55,946 nt of DNA. Origin: Candidatus Iainarchaeum sp. (GTDB lineage Archaea; Iainarchaeota; Iainarchaeia; Iainarchaeales; JAZDDZ01). Positions within the stretch are counted from its first letter, which is position 1, and every line of letters starts with the position of its first letter. Below, piece after piece: positions 3,023-55,534 of the stretch. The notes beneath the pieces were generated by a model that made no database searches, was not told the origin of the DNA, and saw only the letters and a program-made list of their open reading frames with translations. A program made the position numbers and the translations under genes. The DNA is taken from contig JAZDDZ010000003.1 in assembly GCA_043809245.1 (NCBI GenBank), forward strand, positions 1 through 55,946, written 5' to 3'.

Positions 3023-6000
3023 ATGGGCTTGAGTGAAATTGTCGGCGGGGTTTACGCGAAAATAGAGGGCACGTTTTACGCTGTAATGGATTCCCTTGAA
3101 TTGAAGGGAATTCCCGTATACAATGTAATAGAGCCATTGGAGAAAAGGGGGATTCCGGCTTTCCCTGTTTTTATCGCAGCGCTTGTCCTCATAATCGCGC
3201 TGATTTTCGGATTGTTTGTAATTGGAACAACAACTGACGTGAGCCTGAGCCTTAGGCTTGTTGATGACGCGGGAAAAGGGTTAAGCGGCGTGAGCGTTTC
3301 CGCTGTAGGGCCTGATGGAAAGGCTTTCGCGCTTCCAAAGCCATTGTACTCTGACGGCGCAACTATTTCCCTGGCTGGAATTCCCATTGGCGCGGAAATC
3401 ACGCTTACCGGCGAAAAGGAAGGCTATGAAAGCGGCACAGGCACCGTGCAATTCAAGGGAGGCAAGACTGCAACAGCAAGCATTTCCCTGAAAAAGCACG
3501 TGAACGCAATCATTGGAACACTGAAGCTCGTTGACTCTGATTCAAGGGCCTCGGTTGATGATGCAAGGGTGTCGGTTTTGTTTGAAGGCGGCCAGGAAGT
3601 CAACTGCCCTTTCCGCGATGAAAACAAGTTTTATGCGTGCGCGGGAGTGAATGACGGCGAAACCTATCAAGTCAAGGTTTCATCTTCAAACTATGAGGAC
3701 AAGACAATCGCGCACAGTTTTGTGAATGGCTCTGTTGCGGAAATAACAATGGTGCCAAAATCCCCGGGTCAGTTCAGCGCGGCAAACCTTATCGTGAGGA
3801 TAAGGGATGCGGAGACAAATGAGTTGGTGCCTGGCGCGAAAATAGAGTTGTTTGACGCGCAGGACAACACAGTCATAAGCTCGGTTACAGACGATGACGG
3901 AGAATACATCGAGCAGGAAATTTCCACGGGAACAACGCTGAGGCTTGTTGTGTCAAAGGACGGTTACGTTAAATATGATTCAGGTGCAAAGGGAACAAGC
4001 AGGACGATTAGGGGAGAGGAAGAAATATGGGATGTGCAGCTCATCAGGGGCGGAAAAGCCGTTCTTGTAAGCGTTGTGGACAAGGATTCCACTTTCCCGA
4101 AACAGAATGCAAAAGTGATGCTGTTCAACTCCAACGCGGAACTGATTGACTCGAATGTAACCGGTTTTTCCGGAACCGTTGAATTTGCGGGCCTTGACCC
4201 GAATGAAACTTACGCGGTAACGGCTTACGCTGACAGGTATTTGCCTGCGCGCCAGGAATTCACGACCGCTGCAACAACAGAAATACAGCTTGTGTTAGAG
4301 GCTTTGACAGCGCAGAACTCTGCTTCCTTCAGCGCGACAGTGGTTGACTTCAGCAGCTTTGCAGTCAATGACGCAACGCTGAACTTTTTTGAACTGCTTG
4401 GCGGAAGAAAGCTTCCCTTGGGCTTGCCCTCACAGAAAACGGATTTAAGCGGAAGGTATTTGGGGGTTGCAAAAAAAGGAATAAACCTCCTTGTTGAAGC
4501 GTCAAAGGGGCCTGCAACAGGCGACGACAACAAAATGATTGGCGATGAATTGAATGATTTGCTTATACAATTGCAGAGGCCTGAGGGAATAGTTTGGCTG
4601 ACGCTTGTTGATGCGCTCGGCAACCCGGTAACCGATGGCAGGGTGCTGATTGAAAGCGGCTCGGGCGCGGAATTGTTTGACGGCAACGCTTCCGCTGACG
4701 GCATCTTTTTTGATGCGCAGGGAAACAAGTTCGCAAAGCTGACTTACACTTCCCCTGATGGAAAGGTTTTCACGGAAGAGATTAACCTTGAAGGCGAAGG
4801 TGAAATCACTGTGACAATACAGGAAGGTGAAGTGCCTGGGCTTTCCCCGAAAGTTTCATTCATCGGCGTGTTCAATATTCAGGGCGAACAGGTGCAAGGT
4901 TTGACCAAAGGAAACGATTATTACCTGAAGTTTGAAACTGTCTGGCCGAAAGGAGACTTCATGCGCGGCCTGCACGTGCGCATTGGAAAGGATTCCGTCA
5001 AATACGCTGACTCAGAGGACGCTGGCATCACTGGCTTCAGCGCGACAGGGGTTTCGGGATTTTTTTATGGAAGGACCTATTCCCCTTTCCCCGAGCCAGG
5101 CTATGAATCCGTTGACTACTCCAATTCAGGCGAGGCAGGGGAGTACAACAAGTGGCTTGAGCTTTATTTTGGCCAGAGCGCGGAGACAAGGATAGTGAAG
5201 GTTAAGGTTAAGGCAAAGGAAACAGCAGAGGCAAGTGACGTTGAATTGCATTACCGCGCTTGGGCGCAGATTGGAGGCAGCTATTACCGCTCCCCAGAAG
5301 ACCAGACAATCCTGCTGTCGGCTTACTCCGCGGAAAAAAGCGGGCTTTACGCCGAGACAACAATTGCAAGGCTGAAAATATTCGCATCAGAGGCAAAATG
5401 CAAAAACGATTTGTGCACTTCATTCAAGTTCATTAAAGCGGATGGCTCGGAGTTTTTGCCAGAGGAATTCAAGGCGGTTCAGGGAGAGCTTTACGCCTTG
5501 GAAATAGAATTGAATCCATTGAAGTCAGTTGAGGCAACTGTTAAGGCTTCAACTTCCAAGACAAACCCGAAAATAGCTTTCCAGGGATATGGAGTGGAAA
5601 GCTTTGCGGAATTCCCGGACAACAACAAAACAGACACTTCAATTGAAATCACAAGCCTTGCAGTAGAGGAAAGCGAATCACTTAAGGCTAGAATTTACTT
5701 TAAGGCTCTTGCATTGGAGAACACGTTCATCACCGCGCAGATTGTTACCGCGGAAGACGCGATAACGCAGAACCTTTACTTCAACATTTACCTGGAAAAA
5801 AACCTTGAAGTGAAAATAAGGCCTGAAACAGTTGAGCTTGGAAAAGACTTTTCAATCACTGTTGCAGATGAGCAGGGAAATGGAGTGAACAACGCGCAGC
5901 TAAAGCTTTACGCGCCGTCAGGGGAATTAAGCCAGACAATCATCGGCGACGGAAGGAAGGGAAGCGGTGAATCAGGGGTTTACGACATCACTAACTCTTT

Positions 6001-9000: not shown

Positions 9001-11356
9001 AACGCTTGTATGGAAAGGCGATCCCGACACAATCAAGCTAAGCGACCTAGTGAAATTAAACGCATGGAAGGAAAACCTCGCGAAAGCGGAGCAGATTGTT
9101 TCGGGAAGCGGAAGCCCGAGTGCCAAAGGGTTCAAGGACTGGATTAGCAGCAATGAAGAATTAGTAAGCATTACTGCTTATGCAGTTGGATGCGGCGCAA
9201 CATCAATAATGCTCGGGATATGGAAAGGCGGCGTGGGCGGATTTGTTGATGCAGCGCTTAACTGCGGCCTGCCCGCGGCATGGGCATATATGGGCTTAAC
9301 TGAGGGTGGAAAGAAAATGCAGGACTGGGTTAAAAGCACGCTTGGCGGGTTATGGGATACTATAAAATCTACTGCAGGTGCTATTGGCTCTGTGCTGGGA
9401 ATAAAGAAAGACAATCGCACATTCAATGACCTTATAGAGGGGGAGATTGCAGGCGTTAGCACCTACGCGTTAAAGCACGGAATACAGGAAAGTGCAGGAG
9501 TTGTCGGCGAGCTTACAGCGCGCTCGGCAGCGGAACAGGTCGCGCACAACATTGCCGATCAGGTTATGAGCCAGAATATTCAAGGCTGGACTGCAAGCCT
9601 ATACACGCCAAAATATATTGCCCCGGACCTAAGAAACACATTTCAGAACGCGCTGGAGAAAAAAATAGTTGATAAGCTCAGGCCAAGCTTTGGCTCAGGC
9701 AAAAAAATCAGCGACGTGCTGACACAAGACCTAGTTAATTCCGCGTTAAGTGAAGTCGGAACTGATGAAAAGCTCGCAGGGCTGCTTCTAAACTCGCAAA
9801 ACCTGACCACCGACGGCAAGGATACGCTAAAGAAGTTAAGGACCGCAACAATAAAGGAAACAATCAATTCAGAAGAACTTTCAAAAGCAGTTTCACAGGA
9901 TTTAACGTTCCAGGATATGAGGATACGACAGACACCTCTTTCAGCAAAAGAAACCGAAAAGATTCTTGAAAATTTTGCAAAAACAAAATCAGACTCAATT
10001 GCAAATGAGATAGCAGAAAAGATTAAGCTTAAAACCCCTGAAGTTGATAAAACAAAAATTAAAGATAAAGTATTTGAATTCTTAGAGAAAAGACTTAAGA
10101 GTCGAGCCAACGTAGAATTAGAACTAAAAGTGCCGCAGCAGCTGCAGGGCCAAATCCCTGCAAGGTTCAACATAAACAAAATGCCAACAGACCCTGCTGA
10201 ATTGAAAGCATTTAATGACGCATTGGATAGGATTGCCAAGATTTCTGGAGGATCAGCTGCAAAAGAGATAGATATAACGATAAAGGTCCCACAAAGCGTT
10301 ACCGAAAGCCTTGCTAAAGGGGTAATAGATGATAGTTCAATAGCGCTTGCAGATGATTTGGGTAAAAGCCTGAAATCAGCGGTTTCAGAAAAATTCTTCG
10401 CAAAGGCAGGGGCAGAAGCAAATGAACAGATACTTAGGGAAGGCAAATATATGCTCAAGTGGACCAACTTGAAGTCAGTGCTCAGGACTCCATTCAAGCT
10501 AAGTTTCTGGACAGAAATGGGGAAAGGCCTTTTCAAGGGCGCAATAGCTAATTTGGCAGGGGATGCCTTGGCAGGGCTTGTCAAGTATGGAATAGAAAAA
10601 TGGATTGCCCCGCCTGAAGAGCTGCAGAAACAGCTTGAATCAATGGCAGGCGATCTATCCGATGACGACGGAGACGGTTTGGTTGATGAGGAAATATGCG
10701 ACGGCATAACAAACGACAAGGACGACAGGGTTGACGAGGACTGTTATAAGTCTGTTACTGACATGGAGCTGTTAAAGCACAACACTTACAGTATTGAATT
10801 GAAGAAAGACGAATTCGGAATGAAAACTTACACAATGGAAAAGGTTTCAAACTTAGACACGATTCCCTCGGATGCGGAAAGGATAGAGGAGTGCTCTGGA
10901 GCTGCACTCGAGCAGACAATTGAAGGTTATTTGTTCACGCTTATGCCTGACGCGGATTTGCTTGAGAAAAGCGAAGAGCAATATGCAATTGCATACTACA
11001 AGTACTTCGGCAAATACTTTGCGTCAGCGCAGAAAAGGCACAATGTTCCGGAGGCATTATTGGTGACAACCGCAATCAATGCAACTGGAATGAAGCCCGG
11101 AACAAATTATCTTATGGGCTGCGATGTCGGCAATGCTGAAAGAGCCGAAGCAGAGCAAAACATTGAGTGCGCTGCAGAGGCTTTGGGAAATGCATGGAAT
11201 GCGTGCTCTTCACAGCAGGGCGATGCGCAGGTGAAATGCGCATTACAGGGATACGGCAAGGCGCCGAACAAGCTGAACAACGCTGACTACGACGCGATGG
11301 TAAGCACTTACAATAAATGGGATTCGTTTAAAGTGAAAGGCGCTGAAGCAAGCTGA
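3023..11356 (+). CDS. Giant surface protein A (2777 aa): N-terminal anchor, carboxypeptidase-regulatory/Cna-B-like Ig repeats, internal hydrophobic segment, acidic metal-binding motif, degenerate lysozyme/SLT-like C-terminal domain
   Basis: Long intact ORF with a TM near aa 45-68 and repeated V-x-D...G-x-x-V...T...G...KxGY beta-sandwich units. Paralogous motifs are shared with the genes at 12908, 21183 and 29091. Confidence 0.9.
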   Translation: MGLSEIVGGVYAKIEGTFYAVMDSLELKGIPVYNVIEPLEKRGIPAFPVFIAALVLIIALIFGLFVIGTTTDVSLSLRLVDDAGKGLSGVSVSAVGPDGKAFALPKPLYSDGATISLAGIPIGAEITLTGEKEGYESGTGTVQFKGGKTATASISLKKHVNAIIGTLKLVDSDSRASVDDARVSVLFEGGQEVNCPFRDENKFYACAGVNDGETYQVKVSSSNYEDKTIAHSFVNGSVAEITMVPKSPGQFSAANLIVRIRDAETNELVPGAKIELFDAQDNTVISSVTDDDGEYIEQEISTGTTLRLVVSKDGYVKYDSGAKGTSRTIRGEEEIWDVQLIRGGKAVLVSVVDKDSTFPKQNAKVMLFNSNAELIDSNVTGFSGTVEFAGLDPNETYAVTAYADRYLPARQEFTTAATTEIQLVLEALTAQNSASFSATVVDFSSFAVNDATLNFFELLGGRKLPLGLPSQKTDLSGRYLGVAKKGINLLVEASKGPATGDDNKMIGDELNDLLIQLQRPEGIVWLTLVDALGNPVTDGRVLIESGSGAELFDGNASADGIFFDAQGNKFAKLTYTSPDGKVFTEEINLEGEGEITVTIQEGEVPGLSPKVSFIGVFNIQGEQVQGLTKGNDYYLKFETVWPKGDFMRGLHVRIGKDSVKYADSEDAGITGFSATGVSGFFYGRTYSPFPEPGYESVDYSNSGEAGEYNKWLELYFGQSAETRIVKVKVKAKETAEASDVELHYRAWAQIGGSYYRSPEDQTILLSAYSAEKSGLYAETTIARLKIFASEAKCKNDLCTSFKFIKADGSEFLPEEFKAVQGELYALEIELNPLKSVEATVKASTSKTNPKIAFQGYGVESFAEFPDNNKTDTSIEITSLAVEESESLKARIYFKALALENTFITAQIVTAEDAITQNLYFNIYLEKNLEVKIRPETVELGKDFSITVADEQGNGVNNAQLKLYAPSGELSQTIIGDGRKGSGESGVYDITNSFDPGTVKLELKAEGFKPLSREISVTKGGVLQLPQEIRILIPKADKSALKSIELVNTSDELIQDVTVELQKKANFPQEMLVNPLPPAMIERNSTLDMEIDAEYTGKKESAHAEATMIVRGRVLGKYSVSAETKLILDYNPALDSGCLEFSKGALSALILDEQSSSQEISFTAKNNCELDLVLKPEVVASGTKDDNIKVDVGEIRLGAAGSEGSTQEVIVSVVNLINRNMPQKKTVKYDLFFKSDSLTKSVPLEVMVWNRLFALEMTRNIELWIADTGTGQAAAAQLPLFIRNSGEADVENISFSVSAAYSAGTTQVTVVSPNSTTTDIPLLKKGETVVPPRFVFAKALQTEKSTIADVSQIEVRGTINGKQYDFGPITVTTHISSPKCVLVTPTNIEFISAKTSFGQLSQGIRVKNNCTEEVRVADINPKVFGSNVLMLLPFGATVSPGRELPLQLVLTKREDWQAQQPLYLNLFLVRSNQWLVSQPIQMNLQLGEKGIGDKKASYQEELPVCSDNGSKEKKLVSFPRIATGAGCSDAYCDAEQLAEFLSDKIDAKVKDAKNTVGRYNGEILNTPCDKESIYGGFCSFDQLGVKTETFFVYFMNDNLSADMMESVLDKKSSLGSYRVDFIGSGSNIANAGSLLGGYGGQILFTAPFQGCGRYTVKINGAVKVQGNALIPDIMNVLVEVTGDETGAREITEQCENKIQNVNNFLPIDKSYSSANSNDSWLAMVSADEESLQPLGQTVAKSLFGKDDRFSSMASQRTNTLNLILGSEENYLVKLEMEREGGAEPKTINAYIKESVGTETADGTAKIQDAIAKEAATAIAQIKSGQIDGCISADDDYLLIKSTSKVAKIALTGCAQGHLPVVFGEPSCCDFNVSSELKERVSVEALLKDTRQGTGEPWIQTKAGEKTDEVELTLAEDEKSFNAELKLCIEGEQDLQLAQGKKVQLKAKSAADGGRKAEEKEVEMQVCGIHPYSLLEQLNEKAKAFDSAKPKDYYATLVWKGDPDTIKLSDLVKLNAWKENLAKAEQIVSGSGSPSAKGFKDWISSNEELVSITAYAVGCGATSIMLGIWKGGVGGFVDAALNCGLPAAWAYMGLTEGGKKMQDWVKSTLGGLWDTIKSTAGAIGSVLGIKKDNRTFNDLIEGEIAGVSTYALKHGIQESAGVVGELTARSAAEQVAHNIADQVMSQNIQGWTASLYTPKYIAPDLRNTFQNALEKKIVDKLRPSFGSGKKISDVLTQDLVNSALSEVGTDEKLAGLLLNSQNLTTDGKDTLKKLRTATIKETINSEELSKAVSQDLTFQDMRIRQTPLSAKETEKILENFAKTKSDSIANEIAEKIKLKTPEVDKTKIKDKVFEFLEKRLKSRANVELELKVPQQLQGQIPARFNINKMPTDPAELKAFNDALDRIAKISGGSAAKEIDITIKVPQSVTESLAKGVIDDSSIALADDLGKSLKSAVSEKFFAKAGAEANEQILREGKYMLKWTNLKSVLRTPFKLSFWTEMGKGLFKGAIANLAGDALAGLVKYGIEKWIAPPEELQKQLESMAGDLSDDDGDGLVDEEICDGITNDKDDRVDEDCYKSVTDMELLKHNTYSIELKKDEFGMKTYTMEKVSNLDTIPSDAERIEECSGAALEQTIEGYLFTLMPDADLLEKSEEQYAIAYYKYFGKYFASAQKRHNVPEALLVTTAINATGMKPGTNYLMGCDVGNAERAEAEQNIECAAEALGNAWNACSSQQGDAQVKCALQGYGKAPNKLNNADYDAMVSTYNKWDSFKVKGAEAS

Positions 11357-11504: not shown

Positions 11505-11584
11505 AGGAATTGTACGAAATCAAAGATTAGGCAGACTGCGTTAACTATATTAATTTCCTTTCCCTTTAATTTAGCGTGCTGAAA

Positions 11585-12784
11585 ATGAACCGCAAGGGTT
11601 TCACGCTTTTCACTGCGCTTGTCTCATTCGTGCTGATTGTTTTGGCCGCAATACTTGTGCAGGCAATGGTTGCATCAGAGGGAAACACTGTTGACATACT
11701 TGCGGATGTGTCCGAGCAGCAGGAAATGCAGGCAATAGCAGACCTTGCGAGGGCTGATGCGCTGCACCTTTTCAATTTTGGAATGCGTTACTCGATAGAG
11801 GAATGGCTCACGGATGACAAGGAGCCAAAGGATGATGTGCCGGACAACTCATATCTCTTGGACCCGGGCAACATGTCCTGGAACGGCATAGTGGATGACT
11901 TTGCTTCAAGCAATTTTGGGGGAAGTGGAAGCGAGAACATAAAGTTCGCGCAAAGGACCGCGATTCATTTGCAAAGCATTCTTTCAACCGCGCCTGATGT
12001 CAGGGGATACCGCGTGGACTTGCTGACTGCGCCGCAGCAGAAAAACAGCAGCCTTGCACTGCAGGAATCACTTACCGATGCAACAATAGCAAGCACTGAT
12101 GCCGGGGACTTTTTCAAGGTCATTCAATGCGACAGCGGGGAATTCCGGAACTGCCAGGGAACCTTTTACGTGAACCTTAACCTCAAATACCTTACTGACG
12201 AGAAGTTCGAGGTTTTCCCGCAGATACAGGTAAGCAAGCCCACAACAATGAGGGCCTTAAGGGAGGCAGTGCTTCCCCGCGAGAATTTCCAAATGTTCGT
12301 GCCATTGCGCGTATTCAAGGCGCTTGCAGGCGGAAGGCAGATGGCCGTGGAAGCAGGAGGAATTAAGGGGCTTTACAGCGGGCCATTCAAGCAAGAGCTG
12401 AACGAAATTGAAAAGCAATTGGACCCTTCGGGAAGCAACTGCAACGAAAACTCGGGCAAGGCAAATGAAATGGGCAACACGCTTAAGGCGAGCGCTGCAG
12501 CGCTAATAGAGGAAAGGGGCGACGAGTTAGCGCAGGCAATTGGCGCGCTTGACTCTGGCTCTGATTTCCACATTGCCGAAGATTTTACAGGGCATGTGCT
12601 GAAAAAAATCAATGTTCTGATTGACAAGCCTGAAAAAGATGAAGGCGGAAAACACCTGTACTGTGTGGAGCTCTCGAGCTTTGAAGCTTACGCGGTTTTC
12701 GTTGAAGAGAACCCGAATTACATGGTGATAGACAAAACCGATGGCCAGATGTACGGCGTGAGGTTCAGGCAAAGCCTTAACTGA
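11585..12784 (+). CDS. Large prepilin-type (class III signal peptide) protein
   Basis: MNRKG/FTLFTALVSFVLIVLAAILVQAM: a GFTL prepilin cleavage motif lacking Glu+5, followed by a soluble domain of about 370 aa with Cys pairs. Confidence 0.75.
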   Translation: MNRKGFTLFTALVSFVLIVLAAILVQAMVASEGNTVDILADVSEQQEMQAIADLARADALHLFNFGMRYSIEEWLTDDKEPKDDVPDNSYLLDPGNMSWNGIVDDFASSNFGGSGSENIKFAQRTAIHLQSILSTAPDVRGYRVDLLTAPQQKNSSLALQESLTDATIASTDAGDFFKVIQCDSGEFRNCQGTFYVNLNLKYLTDEKFEVFPQIQVSKPTTMRALREAVLPRENFQMFVPLRVFKALAGGRQMAVEAGGIKGLYSGPFKQELNEIEKQLDPSGSNCNENSGKANEMGNTLKASAAALIEERGDELAQAIGALDSGSDFHIAEDFTGHVLKKINVLIDKPEKDEGGKHLYCVELSSFEAYAVFVEENPNYMVIDKTDGQMYGVRFRQSLN

Positions 12785-29090: not shown

Positions 29091-32000
29091 ATGGGCCTGA
29101 AGGACTTTTACTACTCACTGGAAGACAAGTACTATGCCTTGCTTGACAAGATTGACTCGCATCTCCCGGTGTACAAAGTCGTTGACCCGATTGACAAGGT
29201 TGTTCCATCCTTTGCATTGGCGCTTGTTGTAATCGCCCTAATTGTTGCATTGCTTGCCTTTTCTTTAGGCGGCTTTAACCCCTTGGCGCAGGAAAAAACA
29301 ACCCTTACAATCACTGTAATTGACGATGCCGGCGTGCCACTGAAAAACGTTGAATTGACAATAAGCGGGCTTGAGGCCACAATAAAGGATTCAACTAATT
29401 CAAAGGGGCAAAAGGTTTTGGCTGACATTGAAATGGGAAAAACGCTTACAATAACTTTAAAGAAAGCAAATTACGGGGACGCAACGGAAAGCGTGACTGT
29501 CACGGAAAAAAACCAGGAGAAAACAATCACTTTAACGGCAACCGCGTTGCCTTCAACCACAAGGTTCGTTGAATTCCGCGGGCCGGACGGAAAAAAGCTC
29601 TCGGGGAAAACGCTTACCGCTGAATTCAGCTGCTCCAGCGGAACACCAATTGAAAACGCTTTGAGGACAATTACAAGCGGTGAAACAACTGTTGTTGTGC
29701 CGGGAGACTGCGGCAATCTTGTTGCAAGGGTCAGCGGGACAGGCTTCAAAACAAATTCTTTCACATTAAACCAGGGCGGAGTCATAAGCCTTGAAGCGGA
29801 AAACATCCCAAAGGGAACAGTGCTTTTCAGGGTGAAAGACATTGAAACCAAGAGGGCCTTGTCAGGCATTAACTTAAAGGTTTATTCTTTGAACAACCAG
29901 TTGAAGGCTGAGAAAACCACTTCTTTCGGCGAAGCCGTTTTCTCGCTGGAAGCAGGTGATTACTATGTTGTCGCGGAAGACCCGAACGAGGATTACGCGA
30001 GCGAGACAAAAAACTTTGAGGTCAGTGAAAATGATTCCAAAAGCGAGGAAATTCTTTTAGGCAAGGAAATAAAGGCATACATAAAGGTTTTCGTGAAAGA
30101 CAAGGCAAACAATGCAATAATTCCGAATGCAACTGTTTTTTTGAAAAAAGATGACGGAAGCCTTTACGGGCAGAAGGCAACGGATGAAAATGAGGGAAAA
30201 GCCACATTCACTGTAAGCGAGAACGGAATCTATTACATTGAGGCAGCGCACGACTCATACCTTTACTCCGACGCAAACAAAATCGACACAAGAAGCGTTT
30301 CAGTTGGCGCGACAATCACCGCAACGGTAAAGCTGGAGAAATTAACCGCTGCAAACAGCGGAAGGCTCAATGTAACTGTTGTTGACGAGGACAACTGGCC
30401 GGTGGAGAATGCCACGGTTAACTTATTTGATGCGAACAGCGGTTTCCTGTGCAGCGGCTGCGGGCAAAAAACCACGGATGTAAACGGAGTAGCGAAATTC
30501 TCGGGCATTAAGAAAGGAAAGTATTACGCTTTGGCTTACAAGTATCCCGCACAGGGAACAAGCGACGCAAAAGACATTGACAACCGCATTGAAAACGAGT
30601 TGACTGTAAACCTGATTATCGGTAACGGCACTATTCAGGTTAAAGCAGTTGACTTGGATAACAAGGCGATTCCGTTCGCAACCGCTGAACTTAGGACTGA
30701 GACAGGGGAAGCGCTTGGCGCGATTTCATTGGATGCACAGGGAATTGGCTCAAAAACGCTTAAGGCAGACAAAAAAGTTTACGTGAAGGTTTCAGCTGAC
30801 GGATACAGCAGCTGGACAAGCGCTTCAAGGCAAATCATGCCAAACAAAACAGTTACGGTTACCGCAAAGTTAGAGGAAGAGATTTTAGGCGACAAGCCAA
30901 CAGTGGAGTTTTTGGGTTTGTATTCAACGGGAAGCGTTTCCTCGCAAATGCAGCAGCTGAATTCAGGGGAAGAGGTTACTGCAAGGTTTTTGCTGAAAGT
31001 GCCGAGCGAAACAAGTTTCAGCGAAATAGGATTGCATGTGAGGGCCGGGGCTGATGAAACAAAAACAGTGCAAAAAGACCAGTTGTTCATAAACGGAGTT
31101 AATGCGCCTTATGCTTCATCACTGAAAAGCACAACGTACAACGCTTCAAATGGCACTGCAATTGACGAGGAAAACATCACAAATGGAGACGCAAAATGGG
31201 TGAACATCTGGTGGCACTCTGATTCAGGCATTGAGCCGGGAGTTTACAATTTGGAGATACAGTTAAAGGTCAAAAATAATACAACACAGGGATACGAGTT
31301 GCCGCTGCATTACCGCGCATGGGGAGTGGATTCAGGGGAAGCCTATCTCCGCGACCCAATTGACACTGCATTGGGCACTGCCTCGGATTCAGGGGCAAAA
31401 GAAGCGCTTTACGCGCAAACATACGACAAAACTTATTACGAGGGAATTCCCGATGTGTGCAGCGAGGACTTCTGCTATTCGGAAAGAGTCATTGACGGAA
31501 GGGAAGGCTCGATTCTCTCCGACGCGCCGTATCCAATCAGAATGTTTGACGACTACAATGTTGTTTTTGCAATAACGAATAATTCAGGAACACTGCACGA
31601 CAACGCAAACATAAGAGTGAAAAGCACAACCGATGGAATAAAAACTGATGACGTGGTTAGCATCAAGCAGTACTCTTTGGTGAACGCGGACAGCTCGAAT
31701 TTTTCAAGTTCCGCGCCAAAATTTGAAATTGACCCAATTGATTTGGGTTACTTTGCAACCAATAAAACGATAATGGGCAGCATGGTTGTTCAGGCAAAAA
31801 AAGAAGAGCAAAGCAGCGTTCAGTTAACTGTTGTCTCAAGCCAGAACACGGTTTTTGAAAAAATTATTGACTTTCAGCCATACAGCGAACAGGACATTAA
31901 CGTGACGGTTTTGCCTGACGTGCTGGCCTCAATGATTGCCTTGGAGTTAAAGGTTCACGCTGAATACGAGGGCGGAGAAAAAGACGGCTTTCCCTTAAGG

Positions 32001-35000
32001 GATGCAATTGTAAGGGTTACACGTACAGCGCCTGACTTAAGCCAGACAACAATGAACGGGGCAACTGACGCACAGGGAAACGCGGTTTTCAGCATTCCCG
32101 CTTCATCAAACGGCACAAAAATAAAGGTGGAAGTTGAAAAGCCGGGTTATGGAAGCAAGGCAATTGAAAAAACAGTGGGGGAGGGAATAATAAAATTTAA
32201 TCCCAATGAAATGAAGTTCTCCCTTAATTTAACAAACAGGCAGGAAAAAGAATCAAATCTCACAATAACAAACCTTATCCCCCCTGAGCTAACAATTTCA
32301 AAGTTGAAGGTAACGGGAAGGTTTTATGGTTTGCTTGACGAGGAAAGAATGAACAACTATCTCCAGCAATTCATTGGCTTGGACTTGAATAAAAGCCACA
32401 GTGAAACAATAAAGGTGCTTGCTGCGCTAAGCGACAACGCACAACTATTGGATGAAAGCACAATCGTGAAGGGAAACCTGATAGTTAATGCAACCGATGA
32501 AACACAGGGAAGCACCTGGAGCTTTAATGTGCCATTGGAAGTAGACATTGGCTTGGCGGAAATGTGCAAATACAATGACCCCATTTCAATTTCAGTAAAG
32601 GAATGGAAGGGCTCAACGCTTGACAACAAGATAATGAAGGAATTCCTCATCACAAACAACTGCGTTAACGACGATGATGAAGTGATGAACGTTGCAAACC
32701 TGAAGGCGCGCATAAAATGGAGGTCAGACGCAATAGGAAACGTTGAACTGACAATCAACGACCCCTCGGGCGGAAGCTATTCACAGGTACTGCAGGAAAC
32801 AATCTGGGCAAGATACTTCAATGAAGTTGAGGGAGGAAAACAGTATGTTGCAATTGCAACCTTCACGCCAAACCCGGGGCATTTGGGTGAAACAGCTGCA
32901 TTTGACATAGAAATTGACGCGGAGCTATTGACTGACAGGGGAAGGCAGGATGTCGGCGCAACAAATGCAATCCAAGCCGAACTTTTAGTGATTAACTTGG
33001 AGCAATGCATTAAGTATTCGCCGCAGCCACAGGAAGGAATTAAAATTAGCAGAAGCGAAAAGGAAACAAGTTTTGAGTTAGACACAAGCGAGTGCGGTGA
33101 CATTGCGCTTGACTTCAAGTTCTGCGACAACGACAATTGCAGGGGAGGCACAAGCGAGGGCGGAATTTACTTGAGGCCCACGACTTTAAGCAATGTAATG
33201 CCCGATGACCCTAAAACAGTCACGGTTGAAAGGGGTGACATTCCCGGCTTTTACGGAATACCAGTCTCTGTTAGGCCTCCTGGGGGAAGCTTCAGGCAAG
33301 TGGCTGAAATGGAGGCAATAATTGAACCACAGACAGGCAAATACTTCACCTTAGACCGCTATGACTTCACAATAATCGGCAAAGGCTCCAAGGATTCAAC
33401 CACGCTGAACAACCAAATGCTGCAGGAACCAGTTGCGGTTACGGCAGACATGTGCGCGTGGGGAGACGCGACAAGCAATTCAAACTTTGGGTTGGCTGTT
33501 GGGGCAGGGGCGGCGACAGCCACTCTTACCGCATTTACTTCAGTTGGGGCTGCCTCTGCAGTCAGTTTTTCAATAGGAATTGGCGGGTTTAATGGATTAG
33601 TACTCGCTGGTTCTTGGTGCCCTCCGTGTATAATAGCAGGAATCGCAGTAATGATTGCAGTCATGCTTTTCATGGGTGACGACTGCCATGACTCGCATCA
33701 AACCAACACTTTAACCGATTACGTGATTTACTTGGTTGGTTCCGGCACTGACCGCACTGGCGACAGGTTTTTGCCTGCAGACGCGCAAAGCATTATCCTT
33801 GACAACGAGAAAATAAAGGCTTCATGGAACCTTGAGGCAAGGGATATTTACGCAGGGCAGGGAGCGAACGGAACAGAAGAGGTAGGCGTTGTCTTCGAAA
33901 ACCTTGGGTTAGAGGAACAGCAGCCGACTTATTCAATCGGAACGATTCAGGCAAAAGAGCACGTGCACGGCGATGTGGCTCACGCTGGAAACGCAAAAGT
34001 TGACTGCGGAAACGGCAACTTCGGCAATTACTGGATTGGCGCAAGCGGCAACCAGGGAAGCTGCAAGGGCGCAAACGACACAACGCACTCGCAGAAATTC
34101 CATTTGCGGTTCAAGACAAGCGACATAAACGAATCCCTGCCCGCGATTCCGTTTGATGCATACGCGTGCAGCTCAGGCACGGAATTCGGATTGGCTGGAG
34201 TTGGAGCGCTGCCGAAAATAAAATTTAACTGGAACTGGGACGAGGACACTGGAGGAATAGCCTACAATGGCTGCGACCAGGGAAACGACAAGGCGATTTA
34301 CTGTGATGCAACACAGTTCAGCATTGAATTAAACAAGCGCCTGATAAACCTTGAGGAATTCTTCAGGGGAAACAACTATGACTTCACCTGCCCAGCGAAA
34401 AACGATGGAAGCGCTGCAACAGAAGAATACAACAATGAAAACTCCACTCATAACGTCGGCATTGGCTCGCTTGGATTAAGCAAAATAGAGTCAAGTTTGG
34501 TTGACAACACTGCAACGGTAAAGGTAACAGTGAAGAACGGCACAGGCGCAGACCAGAACGCATACTTTAAGGTTACATTGAACGGGACAAATGTTGCACA
34601 ACAGTCATGTGACAAAGAAGTGCTTAACTTAGCAGCAGGGGCAACAGGTTCAGGCGAATGCGTTTTCACTGGCTTAAGCGAGGCAACCTATGCAGTGGTT
34701 GCACAGATTTCAAGCGCTTCAACTTCCTCAATTGACTCAAGCACGGTTTCAAGCACATTCCTTGTAGGCGACCCCCTTGGCTTAGGGGGAGTGGAAGTAG
34801 GCGGATGCTGGGCTCCACGCACAACTGAAACGCTTTACGGAGAGCCAATGATAAAGAGGTTCATTGAAGCGGATTCAAGCATACACTGGACTGCGGCAAT
34901 CAACAACCCGCAGGCATTATATGACACCTTGAAATTCAACGCATACCTCATAAAAGACGGCTACACTGATGACTTCCAGAACGATTTCGTGAAATACTAC

Positions 35001-36191
35001 ACAGAACAGCAGTTCGCTGACACTGATGCAAGGTTCACGGGTTACGGGTTTGACAAATACTTTGAATCCGACAATCTTTTCTTCACGCAGAAATACGTGG
35101 AAAGCCCACAGCTGCCTGCAGCAGGAGTATACGAGGTGGAGATTGCGGCTTACTTTGGCGACAACTGGCGCTTTGTCAAGGAAAACGGAGAGTTGGCTGC
35201 AGGAATTGGCGTTGTGTTTTACCGCTTGGATGACCCAACTCCAAACAGCCCGTTTTATTCAATGCCGTTTGACGGATTGGTTGGATACGAGAACGGAGCA
35301 TACAACAGGCAGGGATACGGAGTGAGTTATAATAATGCTTCAACAGAGGAAATGCTGCAAATAAACAGGGCGGCAACCCCTGTGAAAAGCTATGATGACA
35401 CTGGAAGCAATGCAGTGCTCTCAATTGATTCAGCGATTGAAAGGGACTTCTATGAATTGAATACCTCTCCAGACAGCAGGGGAGCAGTGCTAATAGTGGA
35501 CAAAACAAAGGGCAATGCTGCAAAGCTAACGCTGCAGCCTGCTTATGCAACGCCTGTAATGCTGAAATTGAACCATGGCCTGGACACAGAGCCATTCGGC
35601 GCATTTTATATTGCAACTGAAACAGATGTTCCAGTGGACACGGGAAGCGTTCTGGCTTACTGGAGCGGGGCTGGAAGCTGCCTGGATTTCAGCGGAGTTC
35701 CTGTAACGGAAATTTTCACAGGAAAACCCGACAGGCAGGCGACAACAGCTGACAGGGGCGTAACCAATTGGATGGCTGCATTTGGAGTTGGATGGGAGAA
35801 AGCCGATTACGCTGGAGACGTTTATTTGAGGACAATCTTCTACACTAACCCGAAAAAACAGAGCACATTGAAGGTGGAATCGCCCTTAAGGGGCCTCTCT
35901 TTTTACACCCCTGACCAGAGCGGTTCAGGAGTTTCATTGAACGGAATAAGCTCCATGCCTTACAACAGGCCTGGCGCCGGCTCTGCTGATTCAATTGGCA
36001 CAATGGAGGATGTCTTTGGTTTGGTCGAAAATGGCCAGATGTGCGTAACCAATTCAGGCAACAAGACAAAGTTCTGGTGGAACCCGCAGACAATCTATTT
36101 GCAGCAGGGAACCGCGAGAAGCATACACGAAATGACAATGTCCTTGGTCGGCGGCGTAAACTGCATTGGCTATGACTCAGAGCACAACTGA
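29091..36191 (+). CDS. Giant surface protein D (2366 aa) with Ig-like repeats and an internal hydrophobic hairpin
   Basis: Leader MGLKDFYYSLEDKYYALLDKIDSHLPVYKVVDPIDKVVPSF plus TM; GDAKWVN, CSEDFC, YCDATQFSIE, PFDGLVG, FWWNP. Confidence 0.9.
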   Translation: MGLKDFYYSLEDKYYALLDKIDSHLPVYKVVDPIDKVVPSFALALVVIALIVALLAFSLGGFNPLAQEKTTLTITVIDDAGVPLKNVELTISGLEATIKDSTNSKGQKVLADIEMGKTLTITLKKANYGDATESVTVTEKNQEKTITLTATALPSTTRFVEFRGPDGKKLSGKTLTAEFSCSSGTPIENALRTITSGETTVVVPGDCGNLVARVSGTGFKTNSFTLNQGGVISLEAENIPKGTVLFRVKDIETKRALSGINLKVYSLNNQLKAEKTTSFGEAVFSLEAGDYYVVAEDPNEDYASETKNFEVSENDSKSEEILLGKEIKAYIKVFVKDKANNAIIPNATVFLKKDDGSLYGQKATDENEGKATFTVSENGIYYIEAAHDSYLYSDANKIDTRSVSVGATITATVKLEKLTAANSGRLNVTVVDEDNWPVENATVNLFDANSGFLCSGCGQKTTDVNGVAKFSGIKKGKYYALAYKYPAQGTSDAKDIDNRIENELTVNLIIGNGTIQVKAVDLDNKAIPFATAELRTETGEALGAISLDAQGIGSKTLKADKKVYVKVSADGYSSWTSASRQIMPNKTVTVTAKLEEEILGDKPTVEFLGLYSTGSVSSQMQQLNSGEEVTARFLLKVPSETSFSEIGLHVRAGADETKTVQKDQLFINGVNAPYASSLKSTTYNASNGTAIDEENITNGDAKWVNIWWHSDSGIEPGVYNLEIQLKVKNNTTQGYELPLHYRAWGVDSGEAYLRDPIDTALGTASDSGAKEALYAQTYDKTYYEGIPDVCSEDFCYSERVIDGREGSILSDAPYPIRMFDDYNVVFAITNNSGTLHDNANIRVKSTTDGIKTDDVVSIKQYSLVNADSSNFSSSAPKFEIDPIDLGYFATNKTIMGSMVVQAKKEEQSSVQLTVVSSQNTVFEKIIDFQPYSEQDINVTVLPDVLASMIALELKVHAEYEGGEKDGFPLRDAIVRVTRTAPDLSQTTMNGATDAQGNAVFSIPASSNGTKIKVEVEKPGYGSKAIEKTVGEGIIKFNPNEMKFSLNLTNRQEKESNLTITNLIPPELTISKLKVTGRFYGLLDEERMNNYLQQFIGLDLNKSHSETIKVLAALSDNAQLLDESTIVKGNLIVNATDETQGSTWSFNVPLEVDIGLAEMCKYNDPISISVKEWKGSTLDNKIMKEFLITNNCVNDDDEVMNVANLKARIKWRSDAIGNVELTINDPSGGSYSQVLQETIWARYFNEVEGGKQYVAIATFTPNPGHLGETAAFDIEIDAELLTDRGRQDVGATNAIQAELLVINLEQCIKYSPQPQEGIKISRSEKETSFELDTSECGDIALDFKFCDNDNCRGGTSEGGIYLRPTTLSNVMPDDPKTVTVERGDIPGFYGIPVSVRPPGGSFRQVAEMEAIIEPQTGKYFTLDRYDFTIIGKGSKDSTTLNNQMLQEPVAVTADMCAWGDATSNSNFGLAVGAGAATATLTAFTSVGAASAVSFSIGIGGFNGLVLAGSWCPPCIIAGIAVMIAVMLFMGDDCHDSHQTNTLTDYVIYLVGSGTDRTGDRFLPADAQSIILDNEKIKASWNLEARDIYAGQGANGTEEVGVVFENLGLEEQQPTYSIGTIQAKEHVHGDVAHAGNAKVDCGNGNFGNYWIGASGNQGSCKGANDTTHSQKFHLRFKTSDINESLPAIPFDAYACSSGTEFGLAGVGALPKIKFNWNWDEDTGGIAYNGCDQGNDKAIYCDATQFSIELNKRLINLEEFFRGNNYDFTCPAKNDGSAATEEYNNENSTHNVGIGSLGLSKIESSLVDNTATVKVTVKNGTGADQNAYFKVTLNGTNVAQQSCDKEVLNLAAGATGSGECVFTGLSEATYAVVAQISSASTSSIDSSTVSSTFLVGDPLGLGGVEVGGCWAPRTTETLYGEPMIKRFIEADSSIHWTAAINNPQALYDTLKFNAYLIKDGYTDDFQNDFVKYYTEQQFADTDARFTGYGFDKYFESDNLFFTQKYVESPQLPAAGVYEVEIAAYFGDNWRFVKENGELAAGIGVVFYRLDDPTPNSPFYSMPFDGLVGYENGAYNRQGYGVSYNNASTEEMLQINRAATPVKSYDDTGSNAVLSIDSAIERDFYELNTSPDSRGAVLIVDKTKGNAAKLTLQPAYATPVMLKLNHGLDTEPFGAFYIATETDVPVDTGSVLAYWSGAGSCLDFSGVPVTEIFTGKPDRQATTADRGVTNWMAAFGVGWEKADYAGDVYLRTIFYTNPKKQSTLKVESPLRGLSFYTPDQSGSGVSLNGISSMPYNRPGAGSADSIGTMEDVFGLVENGQMCVTNSGNKTKFWWNPQTIYLQQGTARSIHEMTMSLVGGVNCIGYDSEHN

Positions 36192-55443: not shown

Positions 55444-55534
55444 GCCGAAGTAGCTCAATTAGTGGAGCACGTCACTGGTAATAACGAGATCGCTGGAAAT
55501 GACGAGGCCGCGAGTGCAATTCTCGCCTTCGGCT
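55444..55534 (+). tRNA. tRNA-Thr(GGT) with an 18-nt intron at 37/38 (55481-55498)
   Basis: Acceptor stem GCCGAAG/CTTCGGC; CGTCA-CTGGTA[intron]A-TGACG. C32-G35 can pair with intron CTGG flanked by 3-nt bulges (relaxed BHB). T-loop TGCAATT. Confidence 0.9.

Follow-up and report, generated by a model that had tools for sequence, protein, structure and literature searches.

What does a giant archaeal protein carry at its far end when the domain there resembles a murein-cutting enzyme from which the catalytic residue is gone? The question is raised by contig JAZDDZ010000003.1 of Candidatus Iainarchaeum sp. (assembly GCA_043809245.1), of which positions 1 to 55,946 were analysed; this whole stretch of 55,946 nucleotides is called the window below. 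It encodes a giant protein A (P0001), and a first-pass annotation, made from the letters of the window, had proposed that this protein ends in a lysozyme- or SLT-like domain lacking the catalytic Glu and had read that domain as a dead glycan-binding module. For few DPANN archaea are the host and the means of attachment known, and murein transglycosylase domains in their giant proteins have so far been taken as a sign that some of them attack or attach to bacteria. In one group, which comprises at least 35 genomes at species level, this giant protein retains the module but in a disarmed form. The tail of P0001 shares, according to its predicted structures, the lysozyme-like fold of GH23/SLT domains, and it is probably an SLT-derived pseudoenzyme that would serve as a holder of wall or glycan at the tip of a giant surface protein.

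Fold of the C-terminal tail

The observation of a lysozyme/SLT-like tail without the catalytic Glu is confirmed. The strings on which it was based (YFASAQKRHNVPEALLVTTAINATG, YLMG, AEQNIECAAEALG and KCALQGYG) are all present at the end of the translation of the P0001 open reading frame (ORF), and the range noted for them, 10990-11335, falls within the domain as delimited by structure matches (Table 1), which corresponds to model residues 46-172 of the 177-amino-acid (aa) tail (residues 2601-2777). Two AlphaFold2 (AF2) models were used. The first covers these 177 aa, is based on a 12-row alignment, and has a predicted local distance difference test score (pLDDT) of 83 and a predicted template modelling score (pTM) of 0.80. 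The second covers 340 aa and is based on a 23-row alignment; its pLDDT is 87-98 in the domain and below 50 in the upstream helices, and for these ~200 aa no fold is claimed.

Comparison of both models with 48,161 PDB representatives by VIA-align matches MltF (5aa1_A) with Z 12.1 for model 1 (root-mean-square deviation 3.2, 122 residues aligned) and 12.6 for model 2 (2.8, 120 aligned). The values for models 1 and 2 are 9.8 and 10.2 with MltC, 9.5 and 10.2 with Slt (5o2n), 9.3 and 9.6 with salmon g-type lysozyme, 9.2 and 9.5 with MltE, and 7.8 and 8.6 with Slt70. Ranks 1-40 of both lists consist entirely of lysozyme-like folds (GH23, 19, 73 and 24-type families). The leading Foldseek matches of both models are MltF and g-type lysozymes, with E values of just 0.03-0.05. 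Similarity to the lysozyme-like superfamily, whose absence the first-pass annotation had named as grounds for giving up its reading, is thus seen with both models.

VIA-align carries a caution for all-helical models, and independent lines of evidence were therefore sought. The language-model features of the ESM Atlas place the tail with SLT and lysozyme-g clusters (score 0.95). In profile-profile comparison by hhalign with 32 canonical SLT domains of this phylum, two profiles of the tail family give E 0.00034 with a probability of 38% (A1) and E 0.0018 with a probability of 15% (A2). These matches cover 96-97 columns, and reversed-alignment controls reach E 0.6 over 10-11 columns. The register is that of the canonical SLT domain, as the annotation had set it out: K/A-S/T is paired with E-S, N-[IAF]-x-C-A-A with N-I-x-x-G, and Y-N with A-Y-N. 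Against four SLT domains from giant tips alone the match is weak (E 0.045 over 44 columns). One of the tail's relatives matches SLT_2 in Pfam at E 0.08. For the P0001 tail itself, Pfam returns nothing but sub-threshold AceES-2 and Csm6_6H, and searches of NCBIfam and PHROGs give no match below E 0.01.

Loss of the catalytic glutamate

In P0001 the 'ES' of SLT domains reads AT (Ala2687-Thr2688) and the 'AYN' reads GYG, both as first noted. The family alignment A2 has 32 rows, two of which (P0007 and L012) are identical in sequence. Its column at the Glu position contains Lys in 26 rows, Gln in two, Tyr, Glu (L029) and Ala (P0001) in one each, and a gap in one. The absence of Glu is therefore shared by the family and is not an error of sequencing. 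The 32 canonical domains have Glu in every case, and the Gly and Gln of GLMQ are also invariant among them. The question of whether orthologues retain Glu has a divided answer, since the Glu-less family does not, apart from one row, and the homologues that end in a canonical SLT domain (L064-L066) do. That single row, L029 (G158), reads E-T-G-F-G at this point, and its family mates L023 and L030 have Lys-Asn at the Glu position.

Several other features of the domain are well conserved. The column after the Glu position is Ser in 21 rows and Thr in seven. A117, Y144 (the AYN Tyr, Tyr2744 of P0001) and W166 are invariant, and each of five cysteines is present in 29-31 rows. The Asn after the AYN Tyr is found in 17 of 32 rows, with Gly in P0001. 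In the GLMQ region the family shows the motif [YHFW]-[MIL]-[FTL]-G-C, with an aromatic residue just before G-C in 28 rows; hhalign places GLMQ in a gapped loop, which makes the equivalence of the two uncertain. No conserved Gln occurs in the 32 rows. The sole conserved acid of the family is Glu77 of 'PEAL' (Asp or Glu in 28 of 32 rows). It was considered as a replacement acid and rejected, as this residue of 'VPEALL' lies at the N-terminal end of its helix, ~10 residues from the active-site end; Glu is also common at this spot in canonical SLT domains. P0001 is the only row with Lys at position 91, four residues past the Glu position, where 29 of 32 rows have Gly. As a matter of speculation, this Lys may or may not compensate for the absent Lys at the site itself.

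Identity to P0001 is 21-37% in the tail and 33-41% over the whole protein. Because the tail thus resembles the rest of the protein in this respect, the Glu-less domain is, judging from these alignments, maintained and not decaying. The conserved Lys at the Glu site suggests a new role for that site, in a family that would have been remodelled rather than merely left to decay. GH23 enzymes depend on one Glu as the acid, and canonical catalysis is on this ground excluded for the Glu-less tail.

A tail that is still an enzyme, making a non-canonical cut in a glycan or other bond by means of the Lys, an upstream segment or a residue of a partner protein, is very unlikely. Lys in 26 of 32 rows does suggest selection for chemistry or charge and not simple loss, the rest of the cleft-forming fold is retained, and L029 keeps its Glu-Thr-Gly-Phe-Gly as in canonical SLT domains. 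However, the acid of GH23 is that single Glu, we know of no lysozyme-like glycosidase with Lys as its acid, and the family offers no other conserved acid. P0001 has Ala in place of Lys and also lacks the Asn of YN, and the invariant GLMQ Gln of the canonical domains has no conserved counterpart.

Homologues that end in a canonical SLT domain

Six giant frames with a Pfam SLT match were taken for comparison. Three of them, L064 (2,731 aa), L065 (2,904 aa) and L066 (2,735 aa), align to P0001 by blastp with 30-31% identity over 2,074-2,261 of its residues (E 0), and their C-termini are canonical PF01464 domains (E 1e-11 to 2e-14) with Glu present. L067 (G006, 3,466 aa) and L068 (G003, 2,922 aa) are distant homologues of the giant, with SLT+GDSL and SLT+Amidase_2, respectively. 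Combinations of SLT with Amidase_2 (N-acetylmuramoyl-L-alanine amidase) or a GDSL esterase are seen in these two and also in L069 (G010). From their domain content, such ends are read as multi-enzyme murein-degrading tips on ~3,000-aa archaeal proteins.

A hidden Markov model (HMM) built from the C-terminal 340 aa of the Glu-less type finds L065 at E 6e-23, in a match that spans a glycine-rich segment, an Asp-rich stretch, a hairpin and a conserved Cys, and reaches the domain border. With L064 the same model gives E 0.003 and reaches the first helix of the domain. The HMM of the family alignment A2 itself has no match on the SLT domains of the canonical giants, and homology is therefore shown through the flanks, the fold and the profile-profile comparison. 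Since the proteins are homologous over their full length, the flanks match and a pilin-like neighbour is shared, the alignments show the Glu-less and canonical tips at the same position of orthologous proteins. The SLT, SLT+Amidase_2 and SLT+GDSL ends of the orthologues indicate that the ancestral tip would have acted on murein-type walls.

A quick tree built on the first 2,050 residues of the giants (midpoint-rooted, with long-branch warnings) places seven of eight Glu-less giants in one clade with an approximate likelihood-ratio test (aLRT) value of 100. The eighth is unresolved beside L065+L066, and L064 and L067+L068 fall outside. This topology fits a Glu-less tip derived from an SLT-bearing ancestor, although a single origin is not proven.

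These results bear on the possibility that the lysozyme likeness is a chance arrangement of helices and that an unrelated domain replaced the SLT. Such a replacement would agree with the lack of a significant HMMER match to SLT, with the failure of the A2 model on the canonical giants, and with the middling Z values that helical folds reach by chance. It is nevertheless extremely improbable, as the first 40 ranks of two VIA-align searches belong to one superfamily with the whole domain covered, both hhalign E values stand far below that of the reversed controls and keep the motif register, and the ESM features agree. Furthermore, in L064 and L065, which bear an SLT domain, the flanks stay conserved as far as the domain's first helix, and E-T-G-F-G is retained in L029.

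Distribution of the Glu-less tip

Relatives of the tail are few: just 12 were found among 1.84 billion representative proteins, and seven of these are proteins of 2,706-2,832 aa with the domain at the end. The seven giants are colinear with P0001 at the whole-protein identities given above, end to end in five cases and over most of the length in two. A word-index homologue search with residues 2601-2777 retrieved only the query itself, and a profile search limited to proteins of 400-2,000 aa gave three fragments, whose sole name is 'hypothetical protein'.

Within the phylum, the Glu-less domain occurs in 35 of 215 species genomes, all within one order. Open frames of at least 2,000 aa contain 24 of its 36 matches, and the domain ends no more than 10 residues from the end of the frame in all 30 of 30 loci. 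The Pfam SLT model matches in 62 of the 215 genomes, partly in giant frames. Most genomes with the Glu-less tip (27 of 35, at a genome completeness of 67-99%) have no canonical SLT match at all, so that the family does not as a rule pair the dead tip with a live enzyme. Because Pfam is blind to the tip, domain-based surveys miss it entirely.

The genome from which the window derives contains two ordinary SLT proteins with the catalytic Glu, of 614 and 343 aa, on other contigs (Table 1). The 614-aa protein was considered as a split-off giant tip and rejected, as it has no similarity to the giants and resembles only a 627-aa homologue in G022. Three loci show anomalies in the tail domain. In G152 (L012) it is divided between two overlapping frames of 239 and 926 aa, and in G091 (L018) and G092 (L022) one in-frame TGA lies within the match. 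Frameshifts, broken genes or errors of assembly may account for these cases.

A disarmed tip as a probable holder of glycan

Read as a wall- or glycan-holding pseudoenzyme, the tail would have the following history. The ancestor would have been a surface protein of ~2,700 aa, anchored through one N-terminal membrane helix and ending distally in an SLT domain that cut murein. Within one Iainarchaeum-type group of DPANN the catalytic Glu would have been replaced, by Lys in most members and by Ala in P0001. The Gln of GLMQ would also have been lost, while the helical fold, the five cysteines and the sugar-contacting AYN Tyr were retained. Without its general acid the domain should be unable to cleave a glycan strand, and the disarmed tip would most likely dock on wall glycan without cutting it. 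As ligand, murein or a different polymer of a partner cell, either GlcNAc-type (N-acetylglucosamine-type) or acidic, is proposed. This would make the tip of the giant protein an attachment device, the holding end of a very long tether instead of a cutter. The analyses establish the fold, positional homology to the active SLT tips, the family-wide loss of Glu and conservation of the domain; that the tip lies outside the cell and distally, that it binds glycan and which ligand, wall or host it recognises are what we infer.

Several results weigh against this reading. Foldseek gives no match at E <= 0.001 with either model, all-helical models may obtain VIA-align Z values of ~13 through a common arrangement, and the hhalign probabilities are just 15-38%. 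The Pfam SLT model does not match the tail or its 12 relatives at E up to 1 (the gathering cut-off of PF01464 is 21.3 bits, and the canonical-SLT homologues score 38-54 bits). Searches of the PDB by phmmer and by profile with the tail yield only chance rows (E >= 0.12). The assignment of Ala2687 to the catalytic position depends on the sequence register and the position of the helix. The conserved Lys might have a chemical role, and P0001, which is without it, may differ from its relatives. Finally, the topology of the C-terminal third of P0001 is not fully certain, given two weakly hydrophobic glycine-rich segments.

A decidedly unlikely variant is that the change from Glu to Lys made the tip a retargeted lectin, whose positive charge would grip an acidic wall or surface glycan in a switch from cutting to holding. 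Candidate ligands would include de-peptidated murein, whose lactyl groups are free, or a glycan of an archaeal envelope that is rich in uronic acids. If true, this would imply a change of partner or lifestyle within Iainarchaeota, from attacking bacteria to clinging to a host.

The glycan-holder reading, without the commitment to a role for the charge, remains the favoured one, and the testable parts of the first-pass interpretation are supported. Orthologous tips of the two kinds form a natural pair, one active and one dead, with which to ask whether the giants cut, hold, or do both. The ~180-aa tail is a small, tractable piece of the protein and could point to the wall type of the partner organism.

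Layout of P0001 and its genomic context

The features of P0001 and its neighbours are collected in Table 1. Of three CarboxypepD_reg-like stretches only the best is listed; these and a PEGA-like stretch at residues 990-1026 (Pfam PF08308, E 3.2e-6) are beta-sandwich repeats. The long region that follows them has no family match in Pfam, and in the ESM Atlas linker residues 2030-2600 reach a top score of just 0.76, which is uninformative. The second glycine-rich segment is kept in the canonical-SLT homologues L065 and L064. The Asp-rich stretch is aligned to its counterpart in L065 inside the HMM match described above, and it probably binds cations. The hairpin upstream of the domain (strands E152-158 and E164-170 of AF2 model 2, pLDDT ~63-79) is likewise kept in L064 and L065. 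As there is one N-terminal anchor and the cysteines of the tail are conserved, most of P0001, including the tail, is presumed to lie outside the cell. The annotation's description of the tail as a distal module of a surface protein agrees with these two features; the extracellular distal placement itself is deduced from them.

Table 1. Positions of features in the window, and of two SLT proteins on other contigs of the same genome.
Feature	Position	Strand	Basis
Giant protein A (P0001), 2,777 aa	3023..11356, stop included	+	ORF list and translation
Sole strong transmembrane helix, N-terminal anchor, residues 49-67	3167..3223	+	Kyte-Doolittle, mean 3.35 over 19 residues
Best CarboxypepD_reg-like (Ig/transthyretin-like) repeat, one of three stretches	3794..3979	+	Pfam PF13620, E 6.4e-21
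Glycine-rich, weakly hydrophobic segment, residues 2048-2066	9164..9220	+	Hydropathy 1.58, under firm transmembrane threshold
Second glycine-rich, weakly hydrophobic segment, residues 2502-2520	10526-10582	+	Hydropathy 1.22, under firm transmembrane threshold
Asp-rich, Cys-flanked stretch, residues 2546-2575	10658..10747	+	Sequence reading
Beta-hairpin just upstream of C-terminal domain, residues 2589-2607	10787..10843	+	AF2 model 2
Lysozyme-like (GH23/SLT-like) C-terminal domain, residues 2646-2772	10958..11338	+	Structure matches, hhalign
Ala2687-Thr2688 at catalytic Glu-Ser position of SLT domains, codons GCA ACT	11081..11086	+	hhalign register
Tyr2744, Tyr of SLT 'AYN' motif, codon TAC	11252..11254	+	hhalign; 32/32 rows
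Pilin-like 402-aa neighbour, conserved partner gene	11576..12784	+	Translation, tblastn
Giant ORF, 2,537 aa	12905-20518	+	
Giant ORF, 2,632 aa	21162-29060	+	
Giant ORF, 2,366 aa; strong internal hydrophobic helix, residues 1510-1528	29091-36191	+	
614-aa SLT protein, Cys-rich, membrane-anchored	contig C47, L002:1264-3108	-	
343-aa SLT protein	contig C2, L003:136-1167	+	

The gene directly 3' of P0001 encodes a 402-aa protein whose N-terminus appears to be of prepilin type, with basic residues, a Gly and then a hydrophobic helix; its pilin match in NCBIfam is just E 0.052. By tblastn, such a pilin-like gene comes immediately after the giant gene at 24 of the 35 loci searched (21 of 29 with the Glu-less tip and three of six with a canonical one, namely L064-L066), and the two look like a conserved two-gene unit. 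Three tandem giant ORFs come next. They have an N-terminal anchor like that of P0001, their C-terminal ends differ, and none of the three contains the lysozyme-like tail.

This context raises the alternative that the tail no longer recognises glycan and has become a structural cap or a module for docking to proteins, such as the pilin-like neighbour or the remaining giants of the cluster. The two-gene unit and the three adjoining giant genes would fit such a role, as would the loss of Glu and apparently of Gln, since canonical SLT domains have only three invariant residues and these are two of them. However, the pilin-like gene also follows canonical-SLT giants and therefore fails to explain the change of the tip. 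In addition, the family keeps the AYN Tyr, a Ser or Thr next to the Glu position (28 of 32 rows) and the aromatic residue before the G-C motif (28 of 32), all of which we take to be sugar-contacting positions in SLT domains. On balance, a docking module or cap is unlikely.

Two further observations concern the window at large. Shortly before the giant cluster, on its upstream side, a 181-aa ORF (1896-2441, + strand) has a sub-threshold match to the exosortase/archaeosortase family PF09721 (E 4e-5; 23.6 bits, with the cut-off at 25.7). A tRNA-Thr(GGT) at 55444-55534 (+ strand) is 91 nucleotides in length, which is long for tRNA-Thr, and may contain an intron.

Comparison with known systems

Lectin-like pseudoenzymes have arisen from glycosidases elsewhere, such as the chi-lectins (GH18) and, with the fold of c-type lysozyme, alpha-lactalbumin and sperm lysozyme-like proteins. 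If the favoured reading is right, the P0001 tail would resemble these by analogy, with fold and sugar groove kept and the acid replaced. It differs from all of these in belonging to the GH23 fold family, in its occurrence in another domain of life and in its place at the tip of a giant membrane-anchored protein, and its binding is presumed. With GH23 (PF01464; MltF, MltC, MltE, Slt70) and goose-type lysozyme the modelled tail has the helical fold in common, and with GH23 also the order of motifs: a helix ending at the 'ES' position, NI-x-x-G/A and the AYN Tyr. It departs from GH23 in the replaced Glu, the GLMQ Gln that is not conserved, the five conserved cysteines and the lack of a Pfam SLT match.

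The closest described proteins are the DPANN giants with murein transglycosylase domains reported in PMC8204110 (Castelle et al., 2021), which cites Rinke 2013 and Castelle 2015. That paper presents the family as widespread in, and specific to, Pacearchaeota and Woesearchaeota and proposes wall attachment or degradation; PMC10936187 places such genes in three DPANN metagenome-assembled genomes. The giants of PMC8204110 are like P0001 in their length of up to ~3,000 aa, the small genomes that encode them, their predicted extracellular location and their SLT-type domain. In contrast, the relatives of P0001 are labelled Candidatus Iainarchaeum and not Woesearchaeota or Pacearchaeota, and P0001 and 34 further genomes carry a Glu-less tip that the Pfam SLT model does not recognise. 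The published family (fam00969) may already include Glu-less members that passed unnoticed. None of the papers listed by literature searches deals with an SLT domain from which the catalytic Glu is absent, or with a tip of this kind from Iainarchaeota. Giant SLT-tipped surface proteins of DPANN are already known; what is new here is a tip in which Glu has given way to Lys or Ala and which is invisible to Pfam.

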